In this document: piece by piece, positions 12,635 through 39,492 of the stretch
How the letters are laid out: each line of letters begins with the position of its first letter
Position numbering within the stretch: position 1 is the first letter of the stretch
DNA from: a virus
DNA: 39,492 bases
IMG/VR virus record: IMGVR_UViG_3300030419_005136
Location: 1 to 39,492 of that record
Direction: 5' to 3' (one strand)
Translations under genes and position numbers: made by a program
Notes under the pieces: generated by a model
Database searches by the model: none
The model's input: only the letters and a program-made list of their open reading frames with translations
Told to the model about the DNA's origin: nothing

Positions 12635-12659
12635 AAAAAAACCGCCCGGTGAGGGGCGG
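12635..12659 (-). terminator. promoter-proximal intrinsic terminator upstream of the holin (tR'-like)
   Basis: Minus strand CCGCCC-ctcacc-GGGCGG followed by T7, ending 25 nt before the holin ATG. Confidence 0.7.
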
Positions 12660-12755
12660 CATGTCTAAACACGGAACATTAAAGGGCTTGCTGCGGGGCT
12701 AAGGGAACGGAAATACCCCACATGCCATAAACGATAGATCAAAGTGCCACCGGAT

Positions 12756-12774
12756 GCAACACTTAGCGTGTTAA
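12756..12774. promoter_or_regulatory. ACAC-N5-GTGT operator-like palindrome overlapping a candidate -35 of a late or lysis promoter
   Basis: The site reads gcAACACttagcGTGTTaa. On the minus strand its arm overlaps TTGCAT-17nt-TATCGT, about 75 nt upstream of the terminator at 12635-12659. Confidence 0.4.
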
Positions 12775-12857
12775 ATGCCCCTCAAGAGTGTTACACACCA
12801 GCATGCCAACCACCATCACGGCACGTGCTGGATACTCTTAACAGATAGGTTTGCTCA

Positions 12858-14126
12858 TTACCCCGCCACCCCTTGCCACCACTGGGGCTGGTCGCTGTTG
12901 TGATAAAACGACAATCTTGGTTCTGTCTCGGTCAGAAACACGCTAAAACCGCGCTCACATAGCCAGGTATGCCAGCGCTCCAACGCATCGAGAATCTGCC
13001 GCTCAGCGTAGGTATGAATGTAGGTACGGTCGAGCTTCGATAGCGCATGGTTCAGCAACAACTCACCGGCCAGATACTCGACCCCGAGGTCAGCCCACGT
13101 TGTACGGGCCAGCTTACGCAGGTCATGGGAATGCCACCGCGCACCGCTGGCACTCACCACCAAATCAAACACGGCTGAACGGGATAGCGGCTTTCCTTTG
13201 GATGCACCAGGGAACAGATACACGCCCCGGTAACCGTTCGCCTGCTGATAAGCGCGGTAACGGGTTAGCAGCGTCACGGCCATGGGCGTTAACGGCAGGC
13301 GGTGTTGTCGCTTTGATTTTGTGTTGTCGGTAGGGATAGTCCAGGTGCGCGCTTCCAGATCGAACTGAGGCCACTTCGCTAAACGCGTTTCCCCTATGCG
13401 GGTGCCAAACAGCAGCATCAACAACAGCAGGAAACACCCCGGCGGTTCGCACGAACGCAAGGCGCTTATCAGATCGGGCACATCGGCAGCGGTTAGCGCC
13501 CCCGCCTTAGCTGGGGTTTTCGCGTCGATGAAATCACCCACATTCACGCCTGCGAAGGGGTCAGTATCCAGCAGGTTCAGCTTACGGGCTTGCTTAAACG
13601 CGGCTTTGATCACGCCAAATATCAAACGAACGTAAGCAACGGAATAATGCTCTTGCAGCGGCCACACCAAGCCACTGTCGATACACGCCGGGGTAATGCC
13701 TGCCAACGGCTGGGCACCGAACAGGGGCAATAGGTGCCGATTAACGGCGGTTTTGATCGATGATTTTCGAGTAGCGGATAACCGGCCATGAGACGCCGAA
13801 CGGTCACGATACCAACACAGCAGGTCAGCCACGGTTTCCCACGCATCGACGCCCACCGGCCCCGCCGGATCAAGCGCCAGCTTGGCCTCCAACTCAGGCA
13901 ACCGCGCCAGCAGGGCGCGGGTCGTCAACTCCGGGTAATTGCCCACCCGATGCCAATGGCCACGCCCACCCGCGTAGCGCACCACGTACCAGCTGGCACG
14001 CTCACGGGAAGCATGAAAGCGCACCCGCACCGGGTAGCGCGGGTCGCGCAACTGGAAAATATCAGGGTCAGGTAGGTGCCGCTTAATCGCAGCATCAGAG
14101 AGGGGAACAGCGAGGGTTTTAGGCAT
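12858..14126 (-). CDS. int: tyrosine integrase (P4-like)
   Basis: 422 aa. The C-terminal catalytic region reads ...RIGETRLAKW...HSHDLRKLARTTWADLGV...LLNHALSKLDRTYIHT (R, H-x-x-R, H, Y). Confidence 0.85.
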   Translation of the reverse strand: MPKTLAVPLSDAAIKRHLPDPDIFQLRDPRYPVRVRFHASRERASWYVVRYAGGRGHWHRVGNYPELTTRALLARLPELEAKLALDPAGPVGVDAWETVADLLCWYRDRSASHGRLSATRKSSIKTAVNRHLLPLFGAQPLAGITPACIDSGLVWPLQEHYSVAYVRLIFGVIKAAFKQARKLNLLDTDPFAGVNVGDFIDAKTPAKAGALTAADVPDLISALRSCEPPGCFLLLLMLLFGTRIGETRLAKWPQFDLEARTWTIPTDNTKSKRQHRLPLTPMAVTLLTRYRAYQQANGYRGVYLFPGASKGKPLSRSAVFDLVVSASGARWHSHDLRKLARTTWADLGVEYLAGELLLNHALSKLDRTYIHTYAERQILDALERWHTWLCERGFSVFLTETEPRLSFYHNSDQPQWWQGVAG

Positions 14127-16442: not shown

Positions 16443-16999
16443 TCGACGGCCTCTCTGAGTCGTTGGGCGCGATGCGCCTGCAAAATGTCGTGCAACACGG
16501 TCACCTTGGCCGCATCGCCCTGACGCAACGCCGCCTCGACTGCCGCGCTCATATCCCCCACGGTCACACGGGAAACGCACCAGCGGGCGAAATAGCGCAG
16601 GTTATCGGGGTGGTTCGCCACGTGGGGCGGGTAAGCCAGATCATTGATAAACCACGCCGCCCACTGCTCGGCGCGGTGATAAAGGGTGTCATCGGTGGGT
16701 GCCTGGGCAGGGTCTGCGCGTTCAAGCGTCGGGCAATGCACCGTGAGTGATTCGCCATCATCCTCGACGATCAACAGCCCCTGCGCTTGGTAAAACGCCA
16801 TAAACTCACGGGCGCTATCGTCGTCGGCCTGCATCAAATCGCCCCACGCCACATAGGTTTTTTGTACCGGCCCGGTAGCGGCGGCTAGGGTTTCCAGCAC
16901 CAGCAAATAGCGGGCATAGCCAATCAACCCATACTCAGCCGCCACGGTGGCCACGCCCTCGCTGTGCGCAAGCCCGGCGGGGTGAACAAACCCACTCAC
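16433..16999 (-). CDS. hypothetical early protein (possibly replisome-organiser N-terminal-like)
   Basis: GTGA overlap with the Cro-like gene. The segment VAAEYGLIGYARYLLVLETLA recalls DUF4373-type domains. This assignment is weak. Confidence 0.35.
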   Translation of the reverse strand: MSGFVHPAGLAHSEGVATVAAEYGLIGYARYLLVLETLAAATGPVQKTYVAWGDLMQADDDSAREFMAFYQAQGLLIVEDDGESLTVHCPTLERADPAQAPTDDTLYHRAEQWAAWFINDLAYPPHVANHPDNLRYFARWCVSRVTVGDMSAAVEAALRQGDAAKVTVLHDILQAHRAQRLREAVECY

Positions 17000-17280
17000 G
17001 CCGCCACCCCGTCGCGCTCAGCCAGCACCGCCGCCCAAGGGCCATAGATGCCGTTATAATCCACCGCGCCAGCGGTCAACCGCACGATGCGCCCAGCGGT
17101 GCGTAAACTCGGGGCACGATCAAAGCGATACCAGCTCATCACCGTACGGGGCTTCTCGCTGAGCAGCGCGCCCGCACAGTCCGGCCCGCCCACTTGATCA
17201 ATCCAATCATTCAGCAACACTTTAGCGCACCATTTAACACGAATTGTGTTAAGCCTAGCGCGAAGATTGCCCACGTACAA
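16996..17280 (-). CDS. Cro/YdaS-like HTH regulator, first gene of the leftward operon
   Basis: It is divergent from the CI-like gene. The HTH-like segment is GGPDCAGALLSEKPRTVMSWYRFDRAPSLRTAGRIVRLTAGAV. The start codon is uncertain (TTG 17280 or an internal GTG). Confidence 0.5.
   Translation of the reverse strand: MYVGNLRARLNTIRVKWCAKVLLNDWIDQVGGPDCAGALLSEKPRTVMSWYRFDRAPSLRTAGRIVRLTAGAVDYNGIYGPWAAVLAERDGVAA
17234..17252. promoter_or_regulatory. operator-like perfect palindrome TTAACAC-gaatt-GTGTTAA
   Basis: 7-bp perfect arms with a 5-bp spacer, at the 5' edge of the Cro-like ORF facing the CI gene. Confidence 0.6.
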
Positions 17281-17298
17281 AGGTTTTTTTATTCCACA

Positions 17299-17317
17299 CT
17301 TACACGCTTTGTGTATT
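17299..17317. promoter_or_regulatory. operator-like palindrome cTTACAC-gcttt-GTGTAtt in the cI/cro divergent region
   Basis: It has the same ACAC-N5-GTGT core, in the 131-bp intergenic region between the divergent regulators. Confidence 0.55.
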
Positions 17318-17411
17318 ACTATTGCCTAAGAGGTAATATTTACCCGAAAATTAATCACCGAAGGCGCACACGGACGGCATCAACGGCGGGATAGATAACG
17401 GGAAGCGGAAA

Positions 17412-18065
17412 ATGTCACAGCAAAGCGACAGACAGGACAAAAAAGAGCTAATCGCACAGCGACTAGTGGAAGTGCGCACCCACTTAGGGTGGTCGATCCG
17501 CGACGCAGTCGAAGCGCTCGGCTACGTGCGCTCTCGTTATACCAACTGGGAGCTAGGCATTCGCATGCCCGGCTATCAAGAATTGGAAGACATCGGCAAC
17601 GTAACTGGCTGCAACCCCGGCTATTTTGTCGGCTGGACAAACCGCATGATCGACAGCAGCTACGTCGTGCTAGACCGCACCACGGTTAAAACCCGTGGCG
17701 GCTCGATCACCGTGCAAAACGCCACCGATGTAGCCGCCTACCGCGACGACTACCTAGCCGAAAAAGGGCTAAAGCCCAGCAGTATTATCACCGTCAAAGC
17801 CGAAGATGACGCCATGGAAGGGGTTATCAGCAAGGGCGATTTAGCGCTAATCGACATGAGCCGCAAGCCCGATGCCGTGCGCGACCTGTTCGCCATCCTC
17901 GTGGGTGATCGTATCTGGCTGCGCTGGATACGCCCGGAAATCAACGGCAGCTACACCATGAGCGCCGAAAACAGCCACCAATACCCGGATGAAACCCTCA
18001 CCACCGAGCAGCTACAACAGCTCAACATCATCGGACGCGTCGCCATCATCGAGCACGAACGCTAA
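17412..18065 (+). CDS. CI-like repressor: XRE HTH + S24 peptidase-like domain lacking the catalytic Ser and Lys
   Basis: The N-terminal HTH is LIAQRLVEVRTHLGWSIRDAVEALGYVRSRYTNWELG. The C-terminal LexA/CI-like fold has DDAM in place of GDSM/GNSM and WLRWI in place of VKRL/FKKL. Confidence 0.75.
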   Translation: MSQQSDRQDKKELIAQRLVEVRTHLGWSIRDAVEALGYVRSRYTNWELGIRMPGYQELEDIGNVTGCNPGYFVGWTNRMIDSSYVVLDRTTVKTRGGSITVQNATDVAAYRDDYLAEKGLKPSSIITVKAEDDAMEGVISKGDLALIDMSRKPDAVRDLFAILVGDRIWLRWIRPEINGSYTMSAENSHQYPDETLTTEQLQQLNIIGRVAIIEHER

Positions 18066-18098
18066 CCCCCGCCCAGCGGAAAAACACCCCACTCCTAG

Positions 18099-18126
18099 AA
18101 CGGCACCTACAAAGTGCCGTTTTTTG
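18099..18126 (+). terminator. intrinsic terminator after the CI-like gene
   Basis: AACGGCAC-ctacaaa-GTGCCGTT followed by a T-run. Confidence 0.75.
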
Positions 18127-18135
18127 GCTTGCCGA

Positions 18136-18174
18136 ATAACACAATTAGTGTCACTCTTACACAGACTGTGTAAT
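18136..18174. promoter_or_regulatory. two adjacent operator-like palindromes (aTAACAC-aatta-GTGTCac; cTTACAC-agact-GTGTAAt) ahead of the rightward operon
   Basis: They have the same ACAC-N5-GTGT core as the sites at 17234 and 17299. They lie between the cI terminator and the gene at 18191 and overlap the -10-like TGTAAT. Confidence 0.55.
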
Positions 18175-18190: not shown

Positions 18191-18448
18191 ATGACCACGC
18201 AAGCGCTAGCCACCGTTGCCGCATCGCCCCCCATCGCCTGCACGCCACAAGCGCTGCACCAAGCACTGCGCGAAAGCGTGGCTATCGCCTGCGGCCTCGA
18301 AAAAATGGCCCAATGCGCGCTAGATGAAGGCGAGTACCCAGCGGAAGAACTCGACAACCTTTTTGCTCTCATTAACCGCCACCGCCGCGATTTAGAAGAG
18401 ATCAAGGCCGCGCTGGCCGAACTCGCCACGGGTGGCCGCCATGAATAA
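18191..18448 (+). CDS. hypothetical early protein
   Basis: ATG with an AGAGGG SD. 85 aa, acidic, no recognised motif. Confidence 0.5.
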   Translation: MTTQALATVAASPPIACTPQALHQALRESVAIACGLEKMAQCALDEGEYPAEELDNLFALINRHRRDLEEIKAALAELATGGRHE

Positions 18449-21991: not shown

Positions 21992-22257
21992 CCACAAAAC
22001 TGCATAGCGCTACTCTGCCCGAAGTCGCTGCAAAATCAGCGACCGGGTTTAGCAGCTCAACGGACATTGGCGCACAAGCGCCCCCAATCATCGTGTAGGC
22101 GCTATTTTTGTGCCCGCGTGATGCACTATGGCGGGCCGTGCGTGGGGCGCTTCGGCGCGCCGGGTTTCCAATGTCCCCGGTCTGCTAACCCGCGTACGGT
22201 TCGCCTCCATCGTTTAGCAGCGACAGGCGAACTCCAACAGACTTGGAGAATCGCACC

Positions 22258-23040
22258 ATGAGCACCCCCACTATCACAGTGTCTGGCGTCACCCTTCCCT
22301 ATATTGAATATCAGCAGCAACCCGTCGTCACTTTCGCCATGATCGACGGCGTACATTCAAAATCCAAGGCGACGGCACGACGCTCATTTCAGCGAAACAA
22401 AAAGCATTTTATTGAGGGTGAAGACTTCTATGCCCTTGATTCTGAAAGGTTGGGACAAATTGTCACTACCTATCCCGACCTGTTTCCGGCGGCAACCACA
22501 CGCCTAACCCTCTTCACCGAAACCGGCTACCTTATGCTGGTCAAATCGTTTACCGACGACCTCGCATGGCAAGTACAGCGCCAGCTCGTCAAAAGCTATT
22601 TCCGCGTCAAAGGCGCGATGCAGCCCACCACCGCCGAGCCCATCCCCACGCCCATCGACCACCGCCAGCGCGAACAGCTCACCAACGCGGCTAACGCCGT
22701 GTTTCGCAATTTCCACGGCATGCGCCAAAGCGCCACCGGCTGGTTTTACAACGGCGTGCGCACCGACTACTGCCTAAAACGCATCGAAGATTTAAGCCAG
22801 GACGACTTCCCGGCGGTGATGGAACGCCTCCAAGCCCTACGCCCCAAGGTGCGCCAATACGAAGATTTTAGGTATGACTTTCAACAGTCGTTTTTAAAAG
22901 AGGTGGTAGGCGAAGGCCAGCCCTACACGGCATGGATCAGCAAGCTAGCCGGTGGCCAACACCACATCGGCCAACGCCCCAACTGGAAAGCGATAGCCAA
23001 GCAAGTGCTAATCCACAACGGCTTACTCACCAAACAGTAA
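22258..23040 (+). CDS. ORF6N/KilA-N domain protein (antirepressor-type DNA-binding protein)
   Basis: ATG 22258 with a GGAGA SD. The N-terminus QPVVTFAMIDGVHSKSKATARRSFQRNKKHFIEGEDFY...LFTETGYLMLVKSFTDDLAWQVQRQLVKSYF fits ORF6N. Confidence 0.6.
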   Translation: MSTPTITVSGVTLPYIEYQQQPVVTFAMIDGVHSKSKATARRSFQRNKKHFIEGEDFYALDSERLGQIVTTYPDLFPAATTRLTLFTETGYLMLVKSFTDDLAWQVQRQLVKSYFRVKGAMQPTTAEPIPTPIDHRQREQLTNAANAVFRNFHGMRQSATGWFYNGVRTDYCLKRIEDLSQDDFPAVMERLQALRPKVRQYEDFRYDFQQSFLKEVVGEGQPYTAWISKLAGGQHHIGQRPNWKAIAKQVLIHNGLLTKQ

Positions 23041-26523: not shown

Positions 26524-27171
26524 ATGTACGTCAGGGGATACCTACGCGCCAGCACGGCAGAGCAGAACGCCCAGCGGGCACGCAGCACGCTAGAACACTT
26601 CGCCGCTGAACATCGCCGTGAGGTAGTGAGCTGGTATATCGAGAATGTGAGCGGCGCTAGCAGCCAGCGCCCGGAACTCAGGAGGCTTCTGGAAGACGCC
26701 AAGCAAGGTGATGTGCTACTGATCGAATCGGTAGACCGCCTTTCCCGCCTGGGGGCGGCAGAGTGGCGGCACCTGCGGGGGCAGATTGAGGCGCTAGGGT
26801 TACGGGTGGTGTCGCTGGACCTTCCCACTAGCTACGCAGCCATGGCCACGCCCAGCCAGGGCGAGGATTTTACCGCCCGCATGCTCGATGCGCTGAATAC
26901 CATGATGCTAGACGTACTCGCAGCGGTAGCCCGCAAAGACTACGACGACCGGCGAACGCGCCAGCGCCAGGGGATAGAGCAAGCAAAGAAGGAAGGCAAG
27001 TACCAGGGAAAGCGGCCCAACAAGGCACTACACCAGCGAATTGAAGCGCTATTGAACGCCCGCGATGGTGAAGGCAAACCGTTCACCACGGCGCGCATTT
27101 GCGAGCTAGCCGGGTGCGGTGAAACCACTGTGAAAAAGGTAAAGCGGGCTATGCGCGAAAAGGCACACTAA
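26524..27171 (+). CDS. serine recombinase (resolvase/invertase family)
   Basis: The catalytic N-terminus is MYVRGYLRASTAEQN. The block VLLIESVDRLSRL and a C-terminal HTH (ARICELAGCGETTVKKV) are present. Confidence 0.8.
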   Translation: MYVRGYLRASTAEQNAQRARSTLEHFAAEHRREVVSWYIENVSGASSQRPELRRLLEDAKQGDVLLIESVDRLSRLGAAEWRHLRGQIEALGLRVVSLDLPTSYAAMATPSQGEDFTARMLDALNTMMLDVLAAVARKDYDDRRTRQRQGIEQAKKEGKYQGKRPNKALHQRIEALLNARDGEGKPFTTARICELAGCGETTVKKVKRAMREKAH

Positions 27172-27440
27172 GCGCCACGTGAACGCCGCTTTCTTACCCG
27201 GCCCTGCAACCGCTGCCACCATTCGCCGGGTAGCCAGATCGACACCCACCGCAATAGCAATTCAGCCCGGCGGGCGTCCGGGTAATCGTCGGGGTAGTGG
27301 GTAAAGTCGCTGGCCAGCGCCAGCAGTTGGGCCTTGCCTTGCTGTTCTACGGCATCGTGGGCGGGGTCAAAGGCAGCATCTAGCAGCACAGCTAACCACG
27401 TGGCCACTTCATCGGCGTTCATTTGCTTGGGGCGGGGCAT
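27168..27440 (-). CDS. hypothetical protein
   Basis: ATG 27440 with an AGGTG SD. 90 aa. Convergent with the recombinase and overlapping it at the stop codons (CTAA). Confidence 0.35.
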   Translation of the reverse strand: MPRPKQMNADEVATWLAVLLDAAFDPAHDAVEQQGKAQLLALASDFTHYPDDYPDARRAELLLRWVSIWLPGEWWQRLQGRVRKRRSRGA

Positions 27441-27483
27441 AGCGGGCACCTGTTAGCGTGACATATTCCCACTATAGCAGCCG

Positions 27484-27768
27484 CTAATCACCCCGGAAAT
27501 TGTTTTTGAGTATCCAGTTATCCGGCGTGCCGGTGTTTTGACGCCGGGCGTGGGCCGCTGCCTGCTGTGATCGGGTGCGGGCAATCACGCCAATGGCCAA
27601 GCGATCTAACCGGCGGCTGCCTGGGTGCTGCACATAACCCACCTCGGCACACGCAGCGCATGGGAAGCGGTGAAAAAGCCCATGCGTAAAGCCGTGGCCG
27701 TTGCAGTGCGTGCAAGTGGTGGCCTGCAGTTGGGCAAGCGTGCGGGGAAGGGAAGGCGGTAGCGTCAT
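27484..27768 (-). CDS. hypothetical zinc-finger protein (CxxCxGxG-type)
   Basis: CTHCNGHGFTHGLFHRFPCAAC. The SD is weak and the region is high in G+C, so coding status is uncertain. Confidence 0.35.
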   Translation of the reverse strand: MTLPPSLPRTLAQLQATTCTHCNGHGFTHGLFHRFPCAACAEVGYVQHPGSRRLDRLAIGVIARTRSQQAAAHARRQNTGTPDNWILKNNFRGD

Positions 27769-27998
27769 GCGCTTAGTTTACCGGGGGTTGTGGGTTATGT
27801 CGCGCTAGCGACATGCAAGCCGCCCACTGAACTATAAACAGGAATTATACCTGCGCGGCGAACGGGCGTTAGCCCGCCCAACTATGCGGCACCCCTTGCC
27901 ACTGCTAAACGGGGTTTGGGGTGGTTTTTAGCGGGGTCCAGGGGTGCAACCCCTGGGACAACCAGCCCGGCAGGGCTGGGCGTCAGTGTAGAGCGGTT

Positions 27999-28205
27999 CT
28001 GCGCTTGCGCAGGCATTTAAAGCCCTTGACCTTGTGCCCTTAAAAGAGCTTCCGCGCTTGCGCGGGCATTGTGGATAAACCCCACGTTAGTGGGGGTTAG
28101 CTGAACCTATTTAATTACATAAGAGAAGCATATTAACGGTGTACAGCTAATTTAATCTCATATTACCTAATTCTATTTTCAAATCACTTAATTTTACATC
28201 TTTAA
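27999..28205. other. candidate plasmid-type origin downstream of repA
   Basis: 14-bp palindromes CTGCGCTTGCGCAG (27999-28012) and CCGCGCTTGCGCGG (28052-28065), each followed by gcatt. Then a DnaA box, an AACCCCAC/GTGGGGTT hairpin, and a roughly 105-bp AT-rich tract with three CTAATTTAAT-like repeats. Confidence 0.5.
28070..28078 (-). promoter_or_regulatory. perfect DnaA box TTATCCACA
   Basis: Plus strand tgtggataa is TTATCCACA on the minus strand. It lies between the palindromes and the AT-rich tract. Confidence 0.55.
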
Positions 28206-28389
28206 AGGGGGTTCGAATCAGCGGCGGGGTTTGGGCTTTCCGGGGGTGTTATCGGGCTTAGATCGGTGAGATTTTGCGCCAGCGCGGCGCTAAAACAGGC
28301 GGGGAAGTGAGGGCAGGGCAACGCTTAACCACGGGCGATGCGCCCGGCGTGGGCGCTATGTGGCGTTTTTAGGTGGGGTTAGCAGCGGG

Positions 28390-29355
28390 CTAGTAACGTC
28401 GCTGCCGGTCTAGCCACTCTTCATACGGCGGGTACTTGATGCGCACCAGCTTGTTCACCTCGGCATGGCTGGCACCGGGGTTATCGCGCACCACCTGGGC
28501 AAAGTAGGCGTTTGCCTCTTGGTTATAGCGGCGCTGCAGTTCTTTTTCATCGTTGGCGTCGGGTAGATCCTTCTTACCCCGGCGCTGCTTCTGCATCGCT
28601 CTGGGGCCGCTGCCTGCCATCGCTAGGCGGCTACGGGCCTGGGCGGCGTCGTACGCCTTGGGGTGCTGTTCGCGGTGCTTACGGCGGGCTTTCTTAATGC
28701 GGTTGCTGCACCAGTCGCGGAACTCCTTAAACTTCTGGTAGCCCACACGCCCCAGCGCCAGCAGAAAATCCGGGTTGAGTAGCTTCACAGCAGGCCGGGC
28801 GCGCTTAGTACCGTCGGCTTTCACCTCATGCTGCAAATGCACCGTAAACGCGCCAGCGAGCTTTAAGCGCCGGAAGGCGCGCCAAAAACGTTGGCTAGGC
28901 TCGGGGGCTTCCGGGGTGCTGCCGGGTGCCAGCAGGCCCGCCACGCGGGCAATTTCCGCACAGCTACGGTGTTTAAAACCACCATCCGCTAGTGGGGTGC
29001 CCACGCGCAAACTGGCGAACTCGGTAAACTGAATGATGGCAGAAAGCACCAGCGACTCAGCAGCGCGGGCCTCAGATCGGTTACAGCGGGGGTTGCCATC
29101 GGCGTTGGCCTTGCCGTTCAGGTTGGCCAGCGTGGGCAATAGGCCGGGGCTGGTGTAGTAGGCTTTGGCACCGTCTACCAGCGCTTGCAGTGTGGCGGGT
29201 AGCCGCCCCTTTTTAACGGGCTGGCAATAGCGCTCAAATTCCCCTTTCGCGGGGTTATGCCCGCACCGGTTACCGGTGCCCCACCACTTGCCGGGGTGTT
29301 CGTATGGCACGCGCCCCCACGTGAGGGGCTGCGCGTTCTCTGCTGCAGCATCCAT
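28390..29355 (-). CDS. repA: plasmid replication initiator, IncFII RepA-like
   Basis: 321 aa from ATG 29355. The central block ...SEARAAESLVLSAIIQFTEFASLRVGTPLADGGFKHRSCAEIARVAGL...RFWRAFRRLKLAGAFTV... and the basic C-terminus are colinear with IncFII RepA as I recall it. Confidence 0.5.
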   Translation of the reverse strand: MDAAAENAQPLTWGRVPYEHPGKWWGTGNRCGHNPAKGEFERYCQPVKKGRLPATLQALVDGAKAYYTSPGLLPTLANLNGKANADGNPRCNRSEARAAESLVLSAIIQFTEFASLRVGTPLADGGFKHRSCAEIARVAGLLAPGSTPEAPEPSQRFWRAFRRLKLAGAFTVHLQHEVKADGTKRARPAVKLLNPDFLLALGRVGYQKFKEFRDWCSNRIKKARRKHREQHPKAYDAAQARSRLAMAGSGPRAMQKQRRGKKDLPDANDEKELQRRYNQEANAYFAQVVRDNPGASHAEVNKLVRIKYPPYEEWLDRQRRY

Positions 29356-29411: not shown

Positions 29412-29491
29412 AGTCGGTTTTGTGCCCCAGTCGCTAGTGCTGCTGCCCAAAACATCCGAGAAGCCCCAGCGCCAACTGGGGCTTTTCTTTT
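29412..29491 (+). ncRNA. candidate antisense (countertranscript) RNA against the repA leader
   Basis: Plus-strand TTGCCC (29377-82), a 17-nt spacer and TAAACT (29400-05). The terminator AAGCCCCAG-cgccaa-CTGGGGCTT+TTCTTTT (29461-29491) works only on the plus strand. The RNA would lie 57-136 nt upstream of the repA ATG. Confidence 0.35.
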
Positions 29492-29597: not shown

Positions 29598-29616
29598 TTG
29601 ACACGAACTGTGTTAA
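29598..29616. promoter_or_regulatory. operator-like palindrome TTGACAC-gaact-GTGTTAA upstream of the repA leader
   Basis: It has the same ACAC-N5-GTGT core and TTAACAC-type arms as the immunity-region sites. Confidence 0.5.
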
Positions 29617-29658: not shown

Positions 29659-29871
29659 CTAGTGAGGGCCGTGCTTGCCCGCTCGCTGCAGCTCATGCCC
29701 CAGCGCATCGCGCACCATCGCTAGAATCATGTGATTGCCCGCGTGCGGCTCTTCGCCAGTCACCTGCATAAATTCCATCATCACATCAATGTTTTGCAGC
29801 GTATCGCGCTGGTTAATGCCCACCAGTACGTTAGTGTTATATCGCTGCGTCGTTCCCTGCTGCTCGCTCAT
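29659..29871 (-). CDS. 70-aa orphan protein under a LexA-box promoter (candidate SOS-induced antirepressor)
   Basis: ATG 29871 with a GGGGAGG SD. The product begins MSEQQGTTQRYNTNVLVGINQRDTLQNIDVMMEFMQVTGEEPH...; no recognised family. Confidence 0.6.
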   Translation of the reverse strand: MSEQQGTTQRYNTNVLVGINQRDTLQNIDVMMEFMQVTGEEPHAGNHMILAMVRDALGHELQRAGKHGPH

Positions 29872-29910: not shown

Positions 29911-29926
29911 CTGTTTATACATACAG
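29911..29926. promoter_or_regulatory. LexA (SOS) box CTGT-ttatacat-ACAG
   Basis: A perfect CTGT-N8-ACAG with an AT-rich spacer. On the minus strand it lies immediately downstream of the -10-like hexamers TAGTAT/TATGAT. Confidence 0.65.
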
Positions 29927-37700: not shown

Positions 37701-39492
37701 AGCGCGCTTTCAGAACCGTCGATCAAGCCTAGCCACAGGCTTTGGCCGGAATCATCAATACGGCGCAGGGTGTTATCCGCGACGGTTTCCCAGCTAAGGA
37801 AGCTGTTGGCGATGCGCTGGCTGGCGTCTTCTGAGGCGGTGGCGGTGTTTTCTGCTTCCCGCTGCGCTGCTTGAAACGACTCCTGCAGCATGCCCATGGC
37901 CTGCATGTACTGCACGGCATTGATGCGGCCCGTGGCCAGGGCCAAATTCAGCGTGCCCACGTCCTGCGCGTACTGCCGCGCGGCGCGGCGGTTGGGCTGA
38001 ATGCGGTCTAGCAGGTTTTCGTAGCTGTTGGCGAGGGTGGTGGTTTGTTTGGCGGCGTCACGGGATGCGGCGGCGGCGGTGTTGGTGGATGCACTGGCAG
38101 CATCCGCAGTGACTACTATGTCTTCAAGCGCCTGAGCACCTGCGCGGTCGGCGCTAGTGGCCTGCTCTCTCGCTTCTCGGTTTTTGCGTATAGCTGTTTG
38201 CAGCTCGACTTGACGAGCCCACAGGTCTGCCAACGCTTCTGTTTGTTGATCCACTGCACCAGACACACTATCTGCCATGCCTTGGTGTGAGTTTTCATAG
38301 AATGCTTGGCGAGCTTCCAGTTCTGTTAGCTGCGCCATGGCTTCTTGAGCCTGCAGCGAAACAGCCTCAAGAGAGTTAATTAGGTTGTCGTACGTGGCAT
38401 CCAGGGCAGCGGCAGAACCGTCACGTATAGCGGCGCTATTATCATCCAGTGCAATAGTTGCGTTTTTTGCTGCTGCATCGACAAAGCCAAGTTCTTCGCG
38501 GAAATAGAACAATGAGCCAACCGCTATCACAGCTGCGCCAGCTGGCCCACCCACTAACGTTAACGCCCCAGAAACACCACGGACTGAAGCGGCTAACGCG
38601 GTTTGGCTGGCGACCACAGTCGTACTAACGCCCGCCATGCGCGCCAGCGCCATTTGATAGGCGATAGACTGCTGGGTAGCCGCCAGTTTTGCCGCCGTAG
38701 CGGTGGCAAACGCGCCCGCGTAGCGGCCTGCCAGCAGTGCGGCAAGCACTTGAGCGCCATCGGTGAGGTGGCCAACCACCACCTCTGCTCCGCCAACCTC
38801 TTGGATAAACGCATTGACGTTTTGTAGCCCTGCCGTAATCGCAGGCACTAGCTCAGAAAGCAGTGTTTGGCTGACACCTTGCGCGGCAAACTTTAGGCGA
38901 TCGACTTCATCGTTATAGCTTGCCATGGCGTTGGCGGTGTCTTGACTGATCGTTAGGCCCAGCGCGTCAGCCTCCGCGCGCATGGCAGCAATGGCATCAG
39001 TGCCGCTGTTGACGATCTGCACCAGTTTCACGCCTTCACTATCCCAAAGCTGCTGTGCAAGGCGCACCCGCTCACTGCTGTTTTCCACGCCTTGCATGGC
39101 TTCCGCAATGCGTTCGAACTGGTCTTCTGGGGCCAGTTGGTTCAGCTCTTGGGCACTAAGGTTGAGGCGATCCAGCGCCGCAACCGCAACACCAGTGCCT
39201 GCAGCGGCTTCGGCAATGCGGCGGGTTTGGCGCTGCCATGCCGTCGTTAGCTGGTTGAACTCGACGCCAGAGAGGCTGGCGACGTAGTTGTACTGGCTCA
39301 GCGCTTCCGTGCTGGCACCAATCCGCAGGTTGGTTTTCTGTAGCTGGTCGCCCCAGTTGATCTGGTTTTGCAGCGAGTTAGCCGCAAACATGCCCGCAAT
39401 AGCACCGGCAATAGGCGCAGCGGCGCGGCGCAGCACGGCCAAACCTTGGCTAGTGGCGTTAACGTCTTGGTTAAACTGACGGCTACGGCGGG
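34733..39492 (-). CDS. tape measure protein, body and 3' end (5' end is at 223..1 across the circular junction; total 1627 aa)
   Basis: A long Ala/Gln-rich helical protein with a Gly-rich hydrophobic centre. The C-terminus GGVFTNSIVSSPTLFDMGLMGESGDEAIMPL is typical of lambda-like gpH. The track start at 39442 is a TTG inside the frame. Confidence 0.85.
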   Translation of the reverse strand, partial: RRSRQFNQDVNATSQGLAVLRRAAAPIAGAIAGMFAANSLQNQINWGDQLQKTNLRIGASTEALSQYNYVASLSGVEFNQLTTAWQRQTRRIAEAAAGTGVAVAALDRLNLSAQELNQLAPEDQFERIAEAMQGVENSSERVRLAQQLWDSEGVKLVQIVNSGTDAIAAMRAEADALGLTISQDTANAMASYNDEVDRLKFAAQGVSQTLLSELVPAITAGLQNVNAFIQEVGGAEVVVGHLTDGAQVLAALLAGRYAGAFATATAAKLAATQQSIAYQMALARMAGVSTTVVASQTALAASVRGVSGALTLVGGPAGAAVIAVGSLFYFREELGFVDAAAKNATIALDDNSAAIRDGSAAALDATYDNLINSLEAVSLQAQEAMAQLTELEARQAFYENSHQGMADSVSGAVDQQTEALADLWARQVELQTAIRKNREAREQATSADRAGAQALEDIVVTADAASASTNTAAAASRDAAKQTTTLANSYENLLDRIQPNRRAARQYAQDVGTLNLALATGRINAVQYMQAMGMLQESFQAAQREAENTATASEDASQRIANSFLSWETVADNTLRRIDDSGQSLWLGLIDGSESALDTVKRGFQQTLAEIAHMLTTQRLTFHVAGMMGLDTAGMPGGGGGGFNLSSLGSLYTGATNLPYIGDAISSAGSALGFGGSSAAAGGLYANALTGSAAAGGLYAGASTGAAVGGLYGNALTGAATTASGGFMSAASAAMPWLAGGALVDNVLGLGIVDGIVGGISGLFGGRKTAPKFELATVGQDVDPTRHGLFENYGEGVYSRGALGTVGFYDPNTARLEETFDGFDNAKAFLDGITALDNALVGAAANLDNGAEKTQAMASAAQAVRLNASDAAGIANQLATRTLAVVDVIDGDFSAALRGLGLDAEQITGRVVQAANAMQLLDSNSARLNLQFDASAEGALNAAAGLSDYVGGLDNIAAVNQAYYNAAFTETERLSNAQLDLYSSLSNVTDEVPTTVAGLRTLVEAQDLNTEAGGQLAYQLMQLAPALRETNAAVRQAIEQAYQSELGRAPDTAGLEYWFDRVASGSLTLDGALWNIANSAEAASVAAIGGADAMRERTQLELQLLRVQGNANALRDYELSQLAESNRPLQERIWAIEDERAAMQEAERAQQERIRALEQEARTMMSAGQNIRQFVESLQNTGGAGVSPETAYQNAEESFLAAISTIYTSDDSALVQDTISGITGIAQQYLNAAEAYGASGNIYQQAQALVEGSLDDLASRLGSDELEDIDPQLQAMVDQLKNVATNTGLAGPLAKQVPLAQTFAEFFGGSGNQNYMVRQIGALAEIEKAIRNLEFSSGGGSDIDTSPSQPAGKTLTRSQVTSLVDASDNFSFLKQTMRGDSSQRAFSRSLAGDFNSGSLAPSVARNNVDKLISAVGFDEANYLRLNPDIAEAIGRGEVYSGFQHFLLHGIDEGRKFAKGGVFTNSIVSSPTLFDMGLMGESGDEAIMPLTRHSNGSLGVRAELPPMPQFPLLGKSDVTQVMRDMQRTIEQQGKTIERLLNDSNTHLAAANNQRGAAATQQIAATKEGNKMLKKLEDDARLEAAKR
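39394..39492. repeat. second copy of the 99-bp terminal repeat
   Basis: Identical to bases 1-99. Confidence 0.9.

Follow-up and report, generated by a model that had tools for sequence, protein, structure and literature searches.

The window, i.e. the whole stretch of 39,492 nucleotides that was analysed, is a complete circular phage genome of about 39.4 kb (the contig ends close on themselves with a 99-nt overlap). The phage is a member of an uncharacterised family of marine phage-plasmids, found in Halomonas, Vibrio and Aeromonas, which share cI, an integrase, a RepA-like gene, ParA and a c4-ant module. The immunity region gave no megablast match among deposited phages, and cI alone as a protein query gave none in the genome-contig collection; by protein search, the closest deposited phage is the Pseudomonas phage PARCL1pr (33-40% identity). 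The recombinases found are a tyrosine integrase and a serine invertase, without any others. The ORFs searched include no candidate protelomerase, and no other large ORF of the early region could encode one. The lysis cassette is followed by Nu1/GpA-type terminase genes. No match to antiterminator (Q-like) families was obtained with about 30 proteins of the early region. A 136-aa product encoded at 18432-18842 matches a PHROG labelled 'sigma factor' (E = 1.7e-8). The other features are listed in Table 1.

Table 1. Position of the genes, palindromes and other features of the window considered in this work
Feature	Positions	Strand	Sequence or size	Remarks
Intrinsic terminator before the first lysis-cassette gene	12641..12660	-	seven pairs then T7	found by scanner
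Probable attP core	12716..12736	-	TATCGTTTATGGCATGTGGGG	21 nt identical to bacterial pstC; invariant among close relatives
Sixth operator-like site	12756..12774		gcAACAC-ttagc-GTGTTAA	exact match; flanked by the integrase stop codon and the probable attP core
Extra half-site	12785..12795		AGAGTGTTAca	at a spacing of 20 bp from the corresponding half of the sixth site
Tyrosine integrase gene (int)	12858..14126	-	422 aa	Pfam Phage_integrase, E = 5.9e-15; PHROG integrase, E = 7.8e-51
First gene of the left operon	16996..17220	-	74 aa	GTG start; called 74 aa in all relatives
Putative PL operator	17234..17252		TTAACAC-gaatt-GTGTTAA	only perfect 7+7 palindrome; top weight-matrix score (23.4)
Putative operator of the cI promoter-like element (autoregulation)	17299..17317		cTTACAC-gcttt-GTGTAtt	exact match
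CI-type repressor gene (cI)	17412..18065	+	217 aa	HTH_XRE N-terminal domain; S24-like C-terminal domain
Intrinsic terminator after cI	18101..18125	+	CGGCAC-ctacaaa-GTGCCG then T6	read from the sequence
First putative PR operator	18136..18154		aTAACAC-aatta-GTGTCac	exact match
Second putative PR operator	18156..18174		cTTACAC-agact-GTGTAAt	exact match; centre 20 bp from the first
First gene of the right operon	18191..18448	+	85 aa	no HTH detected
C4 antisense RNA	22124-22211			Rfam RF01695, 66.7 bits; directly upstream of the antirepressor gene (antirepressor PHROGs)
RepA-like orphan gene	28390..29355	-	321 aa	counted from the ATG at 29355
Putative remote operator of the RepA-like gene	29598..29616		TTGACAC-gaact-GTGTTAA	exact match; promoter-like element
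Small gene	29659..29871	-	70 aa	LexA box upstream; no family match (Pfam, PHROG, NCBIfam)

The N-terminus of the repressor (residues 15-72) matches the Pfam families HTH_3 (26.2 bits for a cut-off of 23) and HTH_31 (27.1 for a cut-off of 27), and its C-terminus (residues 100-210) matches Peptidase_S24 (PF00717, E = 1.4e-9, 38.1 bits for a cut-off of 23.3). Among PDB sequences, its best match is a protein with an HTH cro/C1-type domain, and the repressor also matches PHROG_4 'transcriptional repressor' (E = 1.8e-22). Its recognition helix carries the motif RSRYTNWE. In the family alignment, with residues assigned by eye, it reads DDAM where the family motif is DDSM, and the region equated by eye with that of the LexA lysine reads WLRWIRPE, i.e. 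with an arginine, in all 19 members; neither BLASTP nor hhalign gave a usable alignment with E. coli LexA. A terminator had been noticed after cI, ahead of the rightward pair of palindromes, and a hairpin followed by a T-run is indeed present there. Relatives have a hairpin and a T-run at this position, with different stem sequences. A simple terminator scanner did not list the cI terminator.

The leftward neighbour of cI encodes a 74-aa protein that has no match in Pfam, PHROG, NCBIfam or PDB and no detectable HTH. Hence the 'cI/cro divergent region' of the preliminary description is not confirmed as such, the cro label being given by position and context only. No Cro was detected when the 74-aa and 85-aa proteins were compared with Pfam (E <= 1), PHROGs, NCBIfam and PDB sequences. 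Armadillo-repeat matches of the 85-aa protein look like helical, low-complexity similarity and were rejected. Between relatives, the 85-aa protein has changed at the same pace as cI, with 33-58% identity in cases where the 74-aa protein is 53-85% identical, and its position and divergence rate would make it the better Cro candidate of the two.

Number and location of the palindromes

A regular-expression search for ACACNNNNNGTGT (ACAC-N5-GTGT) gave exactly six matches, at 12759, 17237, 17302, 18139, 18159 and 29601, which are the cores of the 19-mers given in Table 1. The six palindromes of the preliminary description are thus all found, as is its expectation of less than one such 8-nt core by chance: dinucleotide shuffles contained 0.39 matches on average and two at most, and six were reached in none of 100. 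When up to one mismatch was allowed, only seven more scattered matches appeared, and the 13 observed for 12.3 expected correspond to chance level. A weight matrix based on the symmetrised half-site and built for ACAC-N5-GTGT sites gave 16.8-23.4 bits to the six sites, 9.2 to the next best position and 15.8 to the shuffle maximum. Since this runner-up scores below the shuffle maximum, there is no seventh palindrome, in coding sequence or elsewhere, and the many further coding copies named beforehand as the finding that would speak against the proposal were not seen. The same scan found no operator copy ahead of the c4-ant module.

Non-coding DNA makes up about 12% of the window according to our gene map and contains 6 of the 6 palindromes, a count that requires the first leftward gene to begin at 17220 (the gene-caller placement in relatives) instead of the TTG codon at 17280. 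At two of the sites, 12756 and 29598, modules have been exchanged in a mosaic fashion among relatives, as would be expected if the palindromes were non-regulatory, i.e. a chance cluster, a recombination scar or a module-boundary sequence of mosaic phages. However, this explanation is hardly credible given the excess over shuffled sequence, the absence from coding DNA, the conservation of the arms while spacers vary, the fixed positions relative to conserved -35/-10-like hexamers and the class-wise covariation with the repressor helix described below.

Operators around cI and at the replication gene

We consider it likely, with good confidence, that the CI-type lysogeny repressor of the phage itself uses the six palindromes as operators. 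A repressor dimer would read two (T/A)ACAC half-sites separated by five free bases. For the four palindromes around cI, the role of operators that had been proposed for them is supported by their layout, by the conservation of their arms with free spacers and by the covariation with the recognition helix. This 2+2 layout is kept in relatives whose cI proteins are 98%, 71% and 53% identical, with the same arms and different spacers. Because the consensus scanner calls no sigma-70 promoter in the five presumably regulated regions, promoter assignments rest on conserved hexamers (7-8 of 12 positions).

On the minus strand, the PL operator begins at the last base of TAGGCT, the -10 of the candidate promoter TTGTAC-N17-TAGGCT, and covers the presumed start. 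This leftward element would be promoter-like by its conservation, not by the consensus scanner. From its position over the start region, the operator would repress the leftward early promoter; this position is kept, with a different spacer, in nine relatives. The operator at 17299-17317 sits between TTCCAC (17292-17297) and TATTAC (17314-17319), with the ATG of cI 95 nt downstream, and the GTGTATTA(C/T) junction at this operator is kept in all relatives. Its position inside the repressor's own putative promoter suggests autoregulation. On the other side of cI, the first PR operator occupies the spacer that follows a conserved -35, TTGCC(G/A) (18129-18134), and has the same position in five relatives. 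The second precedes the ATG of the 85-aa gene by 17 nt. Together, the two sites of this pair, which is kept in relatives, would fill the spacer and the start region of the rightward early promoter. The comparison of the flanking sites with the OR and OL pairs of lambda holds for PR, where the two operators are 20 bp apart. It does not hold for the divergent region, whose two sites form no adjacent cooperative pair because their centres are 65 bp apart and each lies on a different one of two back-to-back promoter-like elements.

The RepA-like protein has 116 homologues, a few of which are named 'plasmid replication protein repA' (records from Salinicola, Moritella and Aeromonas) and many of which are encoded on contigs of 34-46 kb. 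It belongs to no Pfam or NCBIfam family. A fold search with its confident AlphaFold model (pLDDT 81.7) gave no PDB match (best E = 0.028, TM 0.1) and, in BFVD, only one unnamed homologue. The fifth palindrome does lie between a gene preceded by a LexA box and the gene previously called repA, but the latter encodes an orphan without Pfam or fold match: no homology to a characterised Rep/RepA family was found and the 'RepA' label rests on position and context. The LexA box, CTGTTTATACATACAG (CTGT-N8-ACAG, 29911-29926), is located 39 nt upstream of the ATG of the 70-aa gene, and a homologue of this gene with a LexA box is also found in one relative (L015). Its product is a candidate SOS-controlled antirepressor. 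Rfam detects no known RNA in the repA leader, where a plus-strand terminator occupies 29458-29487.

The remote operator is 11.4 kb from the repressor gene. Its half-site GTGTCA (29604-29599, minus strand) is located 17 nt upstream of a conserved -10-like hexamer, TAGGAT (29581-29576), so that the operator covers a -35-like sequence, with the ATG of repA about 245 nt downstream. Every RepA locus examined has an operator at the same fixed position. If bound over this -35 in the putative promoter of the RepA-like gene, the repressor may allow the immunity state to set plasmid-type replication.

In relatives, other recognition helices are accompanied by other half-sites at the same positions (GCCAC/GTGGA, TCCAC, GGCAC..GTGCT, ACAG..CTGT or TTAAC..GTTAA), and where SRY[ST]NWE is retained, so is ACAC..GTGT, even when the cI proteins as a whole are only 33-39% identical. 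An exception is L107, which has an SRYGNWE helix without ACAG operators. Furthermore, the site of the RepA locus matches the cI-flanking operators of its own phage better than those of other phages, with a diagonal sum of 80 versus 71.2 +/- 2.4 (exact p = 0.0006, 362,880 permutations, nine immunity types). This test used one positionally defined site per phage, with registers fixed from each site's own symmetry. It replaced a first, noisier one that treated all palindromes in the cI flanks as 'operators', was swamped by spurious palindromes and shared specificity classes, and was not significant (p = 0.17). The covariation argues for the proposal that one regulator also acts at the replication gene. 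A CRP-like motif or that of another host factor was dropped, since a host factor would explain neither the order of the half-sites, ACAC before GTGT, nor their covariation with the phage repressor.

Another product of the immunity module, namely a Cro-like lytic repressor such as the 85-aa protein, or the 74-aa protein, might bind the palindromes while cI recognises something else. Indeed, lambda-type switches have a Cro that shares the operators, and the 85-aa protein, diverging as fast as cI, would also covary with the operator class. We nevertheless regard this as improbable: both proteins are devoid of a detectable DNA-binding domain, the class of operator follows the cI recognition helix even between repressors that are only 33-39% identical, and the Cro proteins of N15, phiKO2 and PY54 bind a single operator, whereas CB binds all of them, including those at repA (PMC4997575). 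The CI-type repressor thus remains our preferred ligand of the palindromes.

The sixth site and its surroundings

The sixth site and the PL operator are identical at 10 of 10 arm positions. Relatives of the same immunity keep these arms with other spacers (gctaa, gttac and tcaac). In L119, a heteroimmune near-twin whose integrase is 98.8% identical and whose cI is 44% identical, only about 100 nt are replaced around the site (12753-12852). Covariation at the sixth site reached p = 0.036 by permutation (n = 6), for only two or three effective immunity classes, and the right arm is fixed as GTGTT in all relatives, whatever their immunity type. In L004, the proximal site is broken by a 2-nt deletion. 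From these comparisons, the sixth site is real and linked to immunity. Moreover, the extra half-site creates a direct repeat AG(C/A)GTGTTA at 12765 and 12785, with the same 20-bp spacing as the PR pair. At this distance, a TAACAC half-site is kept in L001 and L006 and a full second site is found in L004 and L013. The sixth site and the adjacent half-site lie in a 100-nt immunity-specific cassette, and the same repressor very probably binds the sixth site.

Between this cassette and the lysis genes, 122 nt downstream of the integrase stop codon and 19 bp from the sixth site, lies the 21-nt block. It matches exactly inside an uninterrupted pstC on 10 bacterial metagenome contigs, the ORF carrying it being confirmed as PstC (648 bits), and the identity of the block extends up to 26 nt between L119 and L126. 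This block is probably the attP core, a chance match of a 20-mer being possible in a collection of this size. The 22 loci with the block include no attL/attR hybrid junction (all phage loci have the attP form and all bacterial ones an intact pstC), and a scan of the genome-contig collection with a limited set of patterns combining the core and a phage arm found nothing.

The preliminary description saw in the sixth site an operator overlapping a -35, upstream of the terminator of the lysis cassette, and hence a control of the late/lysis entry point. The overlap with TTGCAT stands, as does the terminator, which is kept in five relatives. However, the candidate promoter TTGCAT-N17-TATCGT agrees with the consensus at 7 of 12 positions, was not called by the scanner and has a proposed -10, TATCGT, that is formed by the first six bases of the pstC-identical block. 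No known RNA was detected by Rfam in the int-lysis spacer. The block downstream of the sixth site was first attributed to a lambda PR'-like unit, as its promoter and initially transcribed region. This reading was given up, attP being a better explanation of the conservation of the block because of the pstC matches. Since the site adjoins the probable attP core and the -10 is part of this core, repressor control of the late/lysis entry point is possible and constitutes only one option. In the circular form, the repressor bound over the -35 of this weak promoter-like element could block transcription towards the terminator and the lysis genes; after integration, it could control the transcription that crosses the junction into pstC'-pstA-pstB; it could also modulate recombination.

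Alternatively, the sixth site may be part of the architecture of the attachment site and not a late/lysis operator, the repressor or another immunity-linked protein binding the int-proximal arm. The bound protein could hinder or assist recombination by Int, or gate transcription from the prophage end into pstC'-pstA-pstB-phoU. We put this forward tentatively. It agrees with the position of the pstC-identical block, which adjoins the site directly downstream of int, with the lack of a promoter found by the scanner, and with the length of the immunity-linked cassette, which at about 100 nt exceeds that of one operator. As TATCGT is inside the block, its conservation needs no promoter, and the strong terminator after the core would insulate the lysis genes from host pst read-through. 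The missing hybrid junctions, both among the block loci and in the contig scan, do not favor this explanation, nor does the fact that relatives from isolate genomes are separate phage-length contigs. Besides, L006 keeps TTGCAC-N17-TATGGT, i.e. a -35/-10-like spacing, though its block has diverged from pstC, which favors a promoter. More doubtful still is the precise proposal that the repressor, bound at 19 bp from the crossover core within the 100-nt cassette exchanged with immunity, gates either Int-mediated excision or integration, or transcription from the prophage end into the interrupted host phosphate-transport operon (pstC'-pstA-pstB-phoU).

Switch model and comparison with known phages

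The switch of this phage is of a largely familiar kind and is well supported. Control by one regulator, as proposed in the preliminary description, is upheld for the early operons and for replication, and possible for the late/lysis genes. Operation of the switch by the CI-type repressor, as suggested by sequence comparisons, provides a sequence-level model of the lysis-lysogeny decision for widespread, uncharacterised marine phage-plasmids (Halomonas, Salinicola, Vibrio, Aeromonas and Moritella), with an operator grammar and a readable recognition code (helix motif versus half-site class). It also adds comparative evidence that immunity is wired to plasmid-type replication, as in N15. The one unexpected element is the operator copy adjoining the probable attP in pstC. 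If true, binding of the repressor to the attP arm would tie immunity to either recombination or the phosphate signalling of the host, in an element also capable of plasmid life.

N15 has a LexA-box gene and an antisense-RNA-controlled antirepressor module, and both are present here. The CB repressor of N15 and phiKO2 binds three OR and two OL sites over the repA promoter and represses repA, and it is reported to lack the Ser/Lys autocleavage residues (PMC4997575). Likewise, the promoter-like element of the replication gene carries an operator in our phage, where it covaries with the cI-flanking operators. Its repressor might lack the Ser/Lys residues as well, from the family alignment read by eye. 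However, the replication-gene operator is single here and located 11.4 kb from the repressor gene, whereas the N15 pair adjoins the repressor gene, and the operators are 19-bp ACAC-N5-GTGT sequences instead of the 16-bp T-A-N10-T-A of the N15 type. The genome is circular, with a tyrosine integrase and no protelomerase candidate, its Rep-like protein is a 321-aa orphan whereas the RepA of N15 is large, and an extra site is found beside the probable attP.

As in lambda, an HTH and S24-fold repressor is associated with palindromic operators on both sides of its gene, over divergent and early promoters. The adjacent PR pair about two helical turns apart is also lambda-like, as is the terminator immediately ahead of a lysis cassette that has Nu1/GpA-type terminase genes after it. 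In contrast, each side has two sites instead of three, cI points in the same direction as the right operon, with a terminator between the two, and the sites of the divergent region, on separate promoters, are spaced by 65 bp. No Q-like gene was found among the approximately 30 early-region proteins searched, and lambda is not known to have a cI site at PR', attP or a replication-initiator promoter.

In the phage-plasmid P1, the operators of the primary repressor are dispersed along the genome; its C1 controls lytic replication and is not known to control the plasmid RepA. The dispersed repressor operators and the C4 antisense RNA directly upstream of the antirepressor gene recall P1 and P7. 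However, C1 does not belong to the HTH_XRE/S24 proteins and its operators are asymmetric sequences of 17 bp, and no operator copy lies ahead of the c4-ant module in our phage.

The Mu repressor competes with the transposase at the operator/enhancer. In mycobacteriophage BPs, attP is reported to be located inside the repressor gene (PMC4557955). Both phages are precedents for a direct physical link between immunity and the recombination site. Here, in contrast, the link would be an operator copy in the arm of the probable attP, 4.5 kb from the repressor gene, a geometry that neither of these two mechanisms has.

Six palindromes in a circular genome

An exact search of the 39,492-base window with the pattern ACACNNNNNGTGT returned exactly six matches (12759, 17237, 17302, 18139, 18159 and 29601), which are the cores of the six 19-base ACAC-N5-GTGT palindromes listed in the preliminary description. 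In 100 dinucleotide-preserving shuffles, the mean was 0.39 matches and none contained more than two. Allowing one mismatch added seven scattered matches, i.e. 13 observed for 12.3 expected, which is the chance level. A weight matrix (symmetrised half-site built from the six sites) gave these sites 16.8-23.4 bits and the next best position of the window 9.2 bits, below the maximum of 15.8 bits obtained with shuffled sequence. The mismatch scan and this gap indicate that the window carries six sites and no more. The many copies in coding DNA that had been feared are absent: all six sites lie in non-coding DNA, about 12% of the window in our own gene map.

Bases 1-99 are repeated identically at 39394-39492, so that the contig closes into a circle of ~39.39 kb (about 39,393 bp), whose late operon crosses the contig junction. 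Megablast with the immunity region found no DNA-level relative among deposited phages. Syntenic contigs of 34-46 kb, recovered by protein searches, make up a large family found in Halomonas, Salinicola, Vibrio, Aeromonas, Moritella and marine metagenomes. Several relatives are separate phage-length contigs within isolate assemblies, which, together with ParA and the Rep-like gene, suggests a phage-plasmid lifestyle. One viral contig of 76.6 kb (IMGVR_UViG_3300044878_000205, loci L108 and L110) carries two cI-int modules ~38 kb apart, suggesting either a dimer in tandem or two related genomes joined during assembly.

Two other modules of the rightward operon deserve mention. The C4 antisense RNA directly precedes the antirepressor gene, and the two make up a c4-ant module like immI of P1/P7, here in a phage-plasmid of the Halomonas type; ahead of it, no copy of ACAC-N5-GTGT was found. 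The serine DNA invertase gene lies beside small ORFs, one of which has a weak anti-TRAP-like zinc-ribbon match.

Features of the window and their coordinates
Feature	Position	Strand	Remarks
Late block	12616 down through junction to 30589	minus	Lysis cassette, Nu1/GpA-type terminase, portal, head and tail genes
Conserved strong terminator	12660-12641		Ahead of lysis genes
Probable attP core	12736-12716	minus	21 nt
Sixth site	12756-12774		
Tyrosine integrase	12858-14126	minus	
Leftward early operon	17220 to 14226		
PL operator	17234-17252		First base is last base of TAGGCT in leftward TTGTAC-N17-TAGGCT element
Operator upstream of cI	17299-17317		Between TTCCAC and TATTAC
cI repressor, 217 aa	17412-18065	plus	HTH_XRE and Peptidase_S24 domains
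First PR operator	18136-18154		Occupies spacer after conserved TTGCC(G/A)
Second PR operator	18156-18174		Over expected start region of right operon
Rightward operon	from 18191		RdgC, C4 antisense RNA then antirepressor gene, ParA, DNA invertase
Second gene of right operon, 136 aa	18432-18842	plus	PHROG 'sigma factor', E = 1.7e-8
C4 antisense RNA	22124-22211	plus	Rfam RF01695, 66.7 bits, E = 5.8e-11
Antirepressor ORF	22243-23040		PHROG anti-repressor; ORF6N in relatives
Serine DNA invertase	26524-27171	plus	PHROG DNA invertase, E = 6e-41
Small ORFs by invertase	27168-27449, 27484-27768 (-)		
Candidate replication origin	27769-28389		620 bp free of ORFs of at least 50 aa; AT-rich block about 28100-28200
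26-nt repeats	27992-28017, 28045-28070		Internal palindromes
RepA-like orphan, 321 aa	28390-29355	minus	
Leader hairpin	29458-29487	plus	12-bp GC-rich stem
Replication-gene site	29598-29616	minus	Covers GTGTCA, 17 nt upstream of conserved TAGGAT; ~245 nt before ATG
70-aa gene	29659-29871	minus	LexA box (CTGT-N8-ACAG) at 29911-29926

Predicted operators around cI and their probable ligand

Relatives were fetched through cI homologues. In those with 98%, 71% and 53% cI identity, each of the four positions around cI again holds an exact ACAC-N5-GTGT site, with a different five-base spacer. The arms therefore appear to be under selection and the spacers free. Conservation also points to promoters at these sites, where a simple consensus scanner calls none. 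The likeness to lambda OR and OL that had been proposed is fair as an analogy. However, the sites of the divergent region, 65 bp apart from centre to centre (20 bp for the pair at the right operon), are not an adjacent pair and each belongs to a different promoter-like element. The 'cro' label given to the 74-aa leftward protein is unverified: Pfam, PHROG, NCBIfam and PDB sequence searches detected no DNA-binding domain in it, nor in the 85-aa first protein of the right operon.

The relatives sort into operator classes at the same positions, and the recognition-helix motif of the repressor follows the class. SRY[ST]NWE occurs in all ACAC phages, even at 33-39% overall cI identity to the window. 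It is mainly because of this protein-DNA covariation that cI, rather than a Cro-like protein, is predicted to bind the sites; the direction of regulation is a prediction as well.

Operator classes among related loci and recognition helices of their repressors
Operator class	Examples	Helix motif
ACAC..GTGT	Window, L001, L014, L031, L032, L039, L072, L090	SRY[ST]NWE
GCCAC / GACAC..GTGGA	L004, L013, L071, L119	[ST]R[LFV]SNWE
TCCAC / ATCAC..GTGGA	L041, L043-45	TGMNMWE
GGCAC..GTGCT	L063	RAIYTCYE
ACAG..CTGT	L046, L079, L116	SRYGNWE (one exception, L107)
TTAAC..GTTAA	L052	

Its domain content places the repressor in the CI/LexA-type class. Within residues about 132-175, its S24 domain reads DDAM, with DDSM in about half of the homologues, and in our own reading the whole family has an Arg (WxRWIRPE) where the catalytic Lys is expected; alignment to LexA gave nothing usable for assigning Ser and Lys. 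The autocleavage residues thus appear to be missing and the repressor is probably not self-cleaving, an unconfirmed property that it would share with the CB repressors of N15 and phiKO2, reported not to be self-cleaving (PMC4997575).

Probable control of the replication gene

The preliminary description placed one site ahead of 'repA'. This site lies on a promoter-like element; the gene name depends on context. Homologues of the 321-aa protein go by the name 'plasmid replication protein repA' in a few genome records; the protein itself matches no Pfam or NCBIfam family and its confident AlphaFold model (pLDDT 81.7) gave no informative fold match. A replication role is suggested by the candidate origin directly downstream, where repeats and an AT-rich block lie in a stretch without ORFs, by ParA, by the relatives found as separate contigs and by the leader hairpin. 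Together with the TTTTCTTTT that follows, this hairpin makes an intrinsic terminator for transcription antisense to the Rep-like gene; it has no Rfam match. It is kept at all loci, and in distant relatives (L016, L017, L030-L046) its stem has changed in a compensatory way. An antisense countertranscript, as in plasmid copy control, is thereby suggested.

In every RepA locus examined, a palindrome occupies a fixed position and belongs to the class of its own phage's cI-flanking operators; the L043 palindrome has the same sequence as one of the PL sites. An earlier, noisier covariation test was not significant (p = 0.17). With one positionally defined site per phage, nine immunity types, and matches to each phage's cI flanks counted at 10 arm positions, the own-phage total is 80, versus 71.2 +/- 2.4 for permuted pairings, and 0.057% of all 362,880 permutations reach this value. 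The proposal that the repressor also controls a plasmid-type replication gene is well supported by comparative data. It has a direct experimental precedent in N15 and phiKO2, whose CB binds a pair of operators covering the repA promoter and lowers plasmid copy number (PMC4997575).

The 70-aa gene behind the canonical LexA box, directly upstream of the Rep-like operator/promoter element, belongs to no recognised family; the RepA loci inspected have a small gene in the same place. The 70-aa gene is a candidate SOS-controlled antirepressor or replication trigger.

The sixth site beside a probable attP, and comparison with known systems

The sixth site is identical to the PL operator at 10/10 arm positions, and same-immunity relatives keep its arms with three different spacers (gctaa, gttac, tcaac). 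Over 11.7-14.2 kb, the related locus L119 and the window are nearly identical: nucleotide identity, taken in 50-nt steps, is 90-100%, and as proteins int is 98.8% and endolysin 100% identical. The cI of L119 is only 44% identical. The drop of L119 to 58-64% identity is limited to 12753-12852, ~100 nt that hold the sixth site's variable arm together with an additional half-site at a distance of 20 bp. In L119 the substituted cassette has TCCAC, which also occurs as a half-site in the PL operator (GTGGA) of its same-immunity relative L120. The permutation test gave p = 0.036 for six phages, weaker than at the replication gene because only two or three immunity classes were sampled. By these comparisons, the sixth site is real and linked to immunity.

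Just downstream on the minus strand, a very conserved block, TATCGTTTATGGCATGTGGGG, lies 122 nt past the integrase stop codon. Exact matches occur inside uninterrupted pstC genes of ten large bacterial metagenome contigs, where NCBIfam identified the ORF as PstC at 648 bits. The matching pstC segment encodes ..SIVYGMWG..; the loci concerned are L124-L131, L134-L137 and L139. Given this identity and position, the block is most simply a probable attP core. The phage would then integrate into the phosphate-permease gene and leave pstC truncated, and host pst read-through would be kept out of the lysis genes by the strong terminator. Integration itself is a prediction: no attL/attR hybrid junction was found among the loci holding the block or in a contig scan with limited patterns.

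This bears on the proposed late/lysis promoter, TTGCAT-N17-TATCGT, whose -10 is the first six bases of the pstC-identical block. It fits 7/12 consensus positions and the consensus scanner calls no promoter there; in its favour, L006 keeps the -35/-10-like spacing though its block has diverged from pstC, and the site is centred near -42 of the element. Three outputs are therefore kept: the site may repress (or activate) a weak promoter directed towards the terminator and the lysis genes; once the element is integrated, it may govern transcription that crosses the junction into the distal pst genes; or it may modulate recombination. The idea of one regulator acting on early operons, replication and late/lysis entry is partly supported: the case is strong at the four cI-flanking sites and at the replication gene, and late/lysis entry is one possible output of the sixth site. 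The 136-aa product of the right operon, which matches no Pfam family, could be a late-gene regulator and, if so, would bear on the switching-on of lysis and late genes.

That one repressor can have a dispersed regulon including replication is already established. The predicted wiring of the window resembles that of N15 and phiKO2, where the repressor also controls repA, and its operator dispersal and c4-ant module recall P1. However, it is a member of neither group, being circular, with an integrase, no protelomerase candidate, an orphan Rep-like protein and another operator grammar. Its sole feature without clear precedent would be the operator that is linked to immunity and lies next to a probable attP in pstC.
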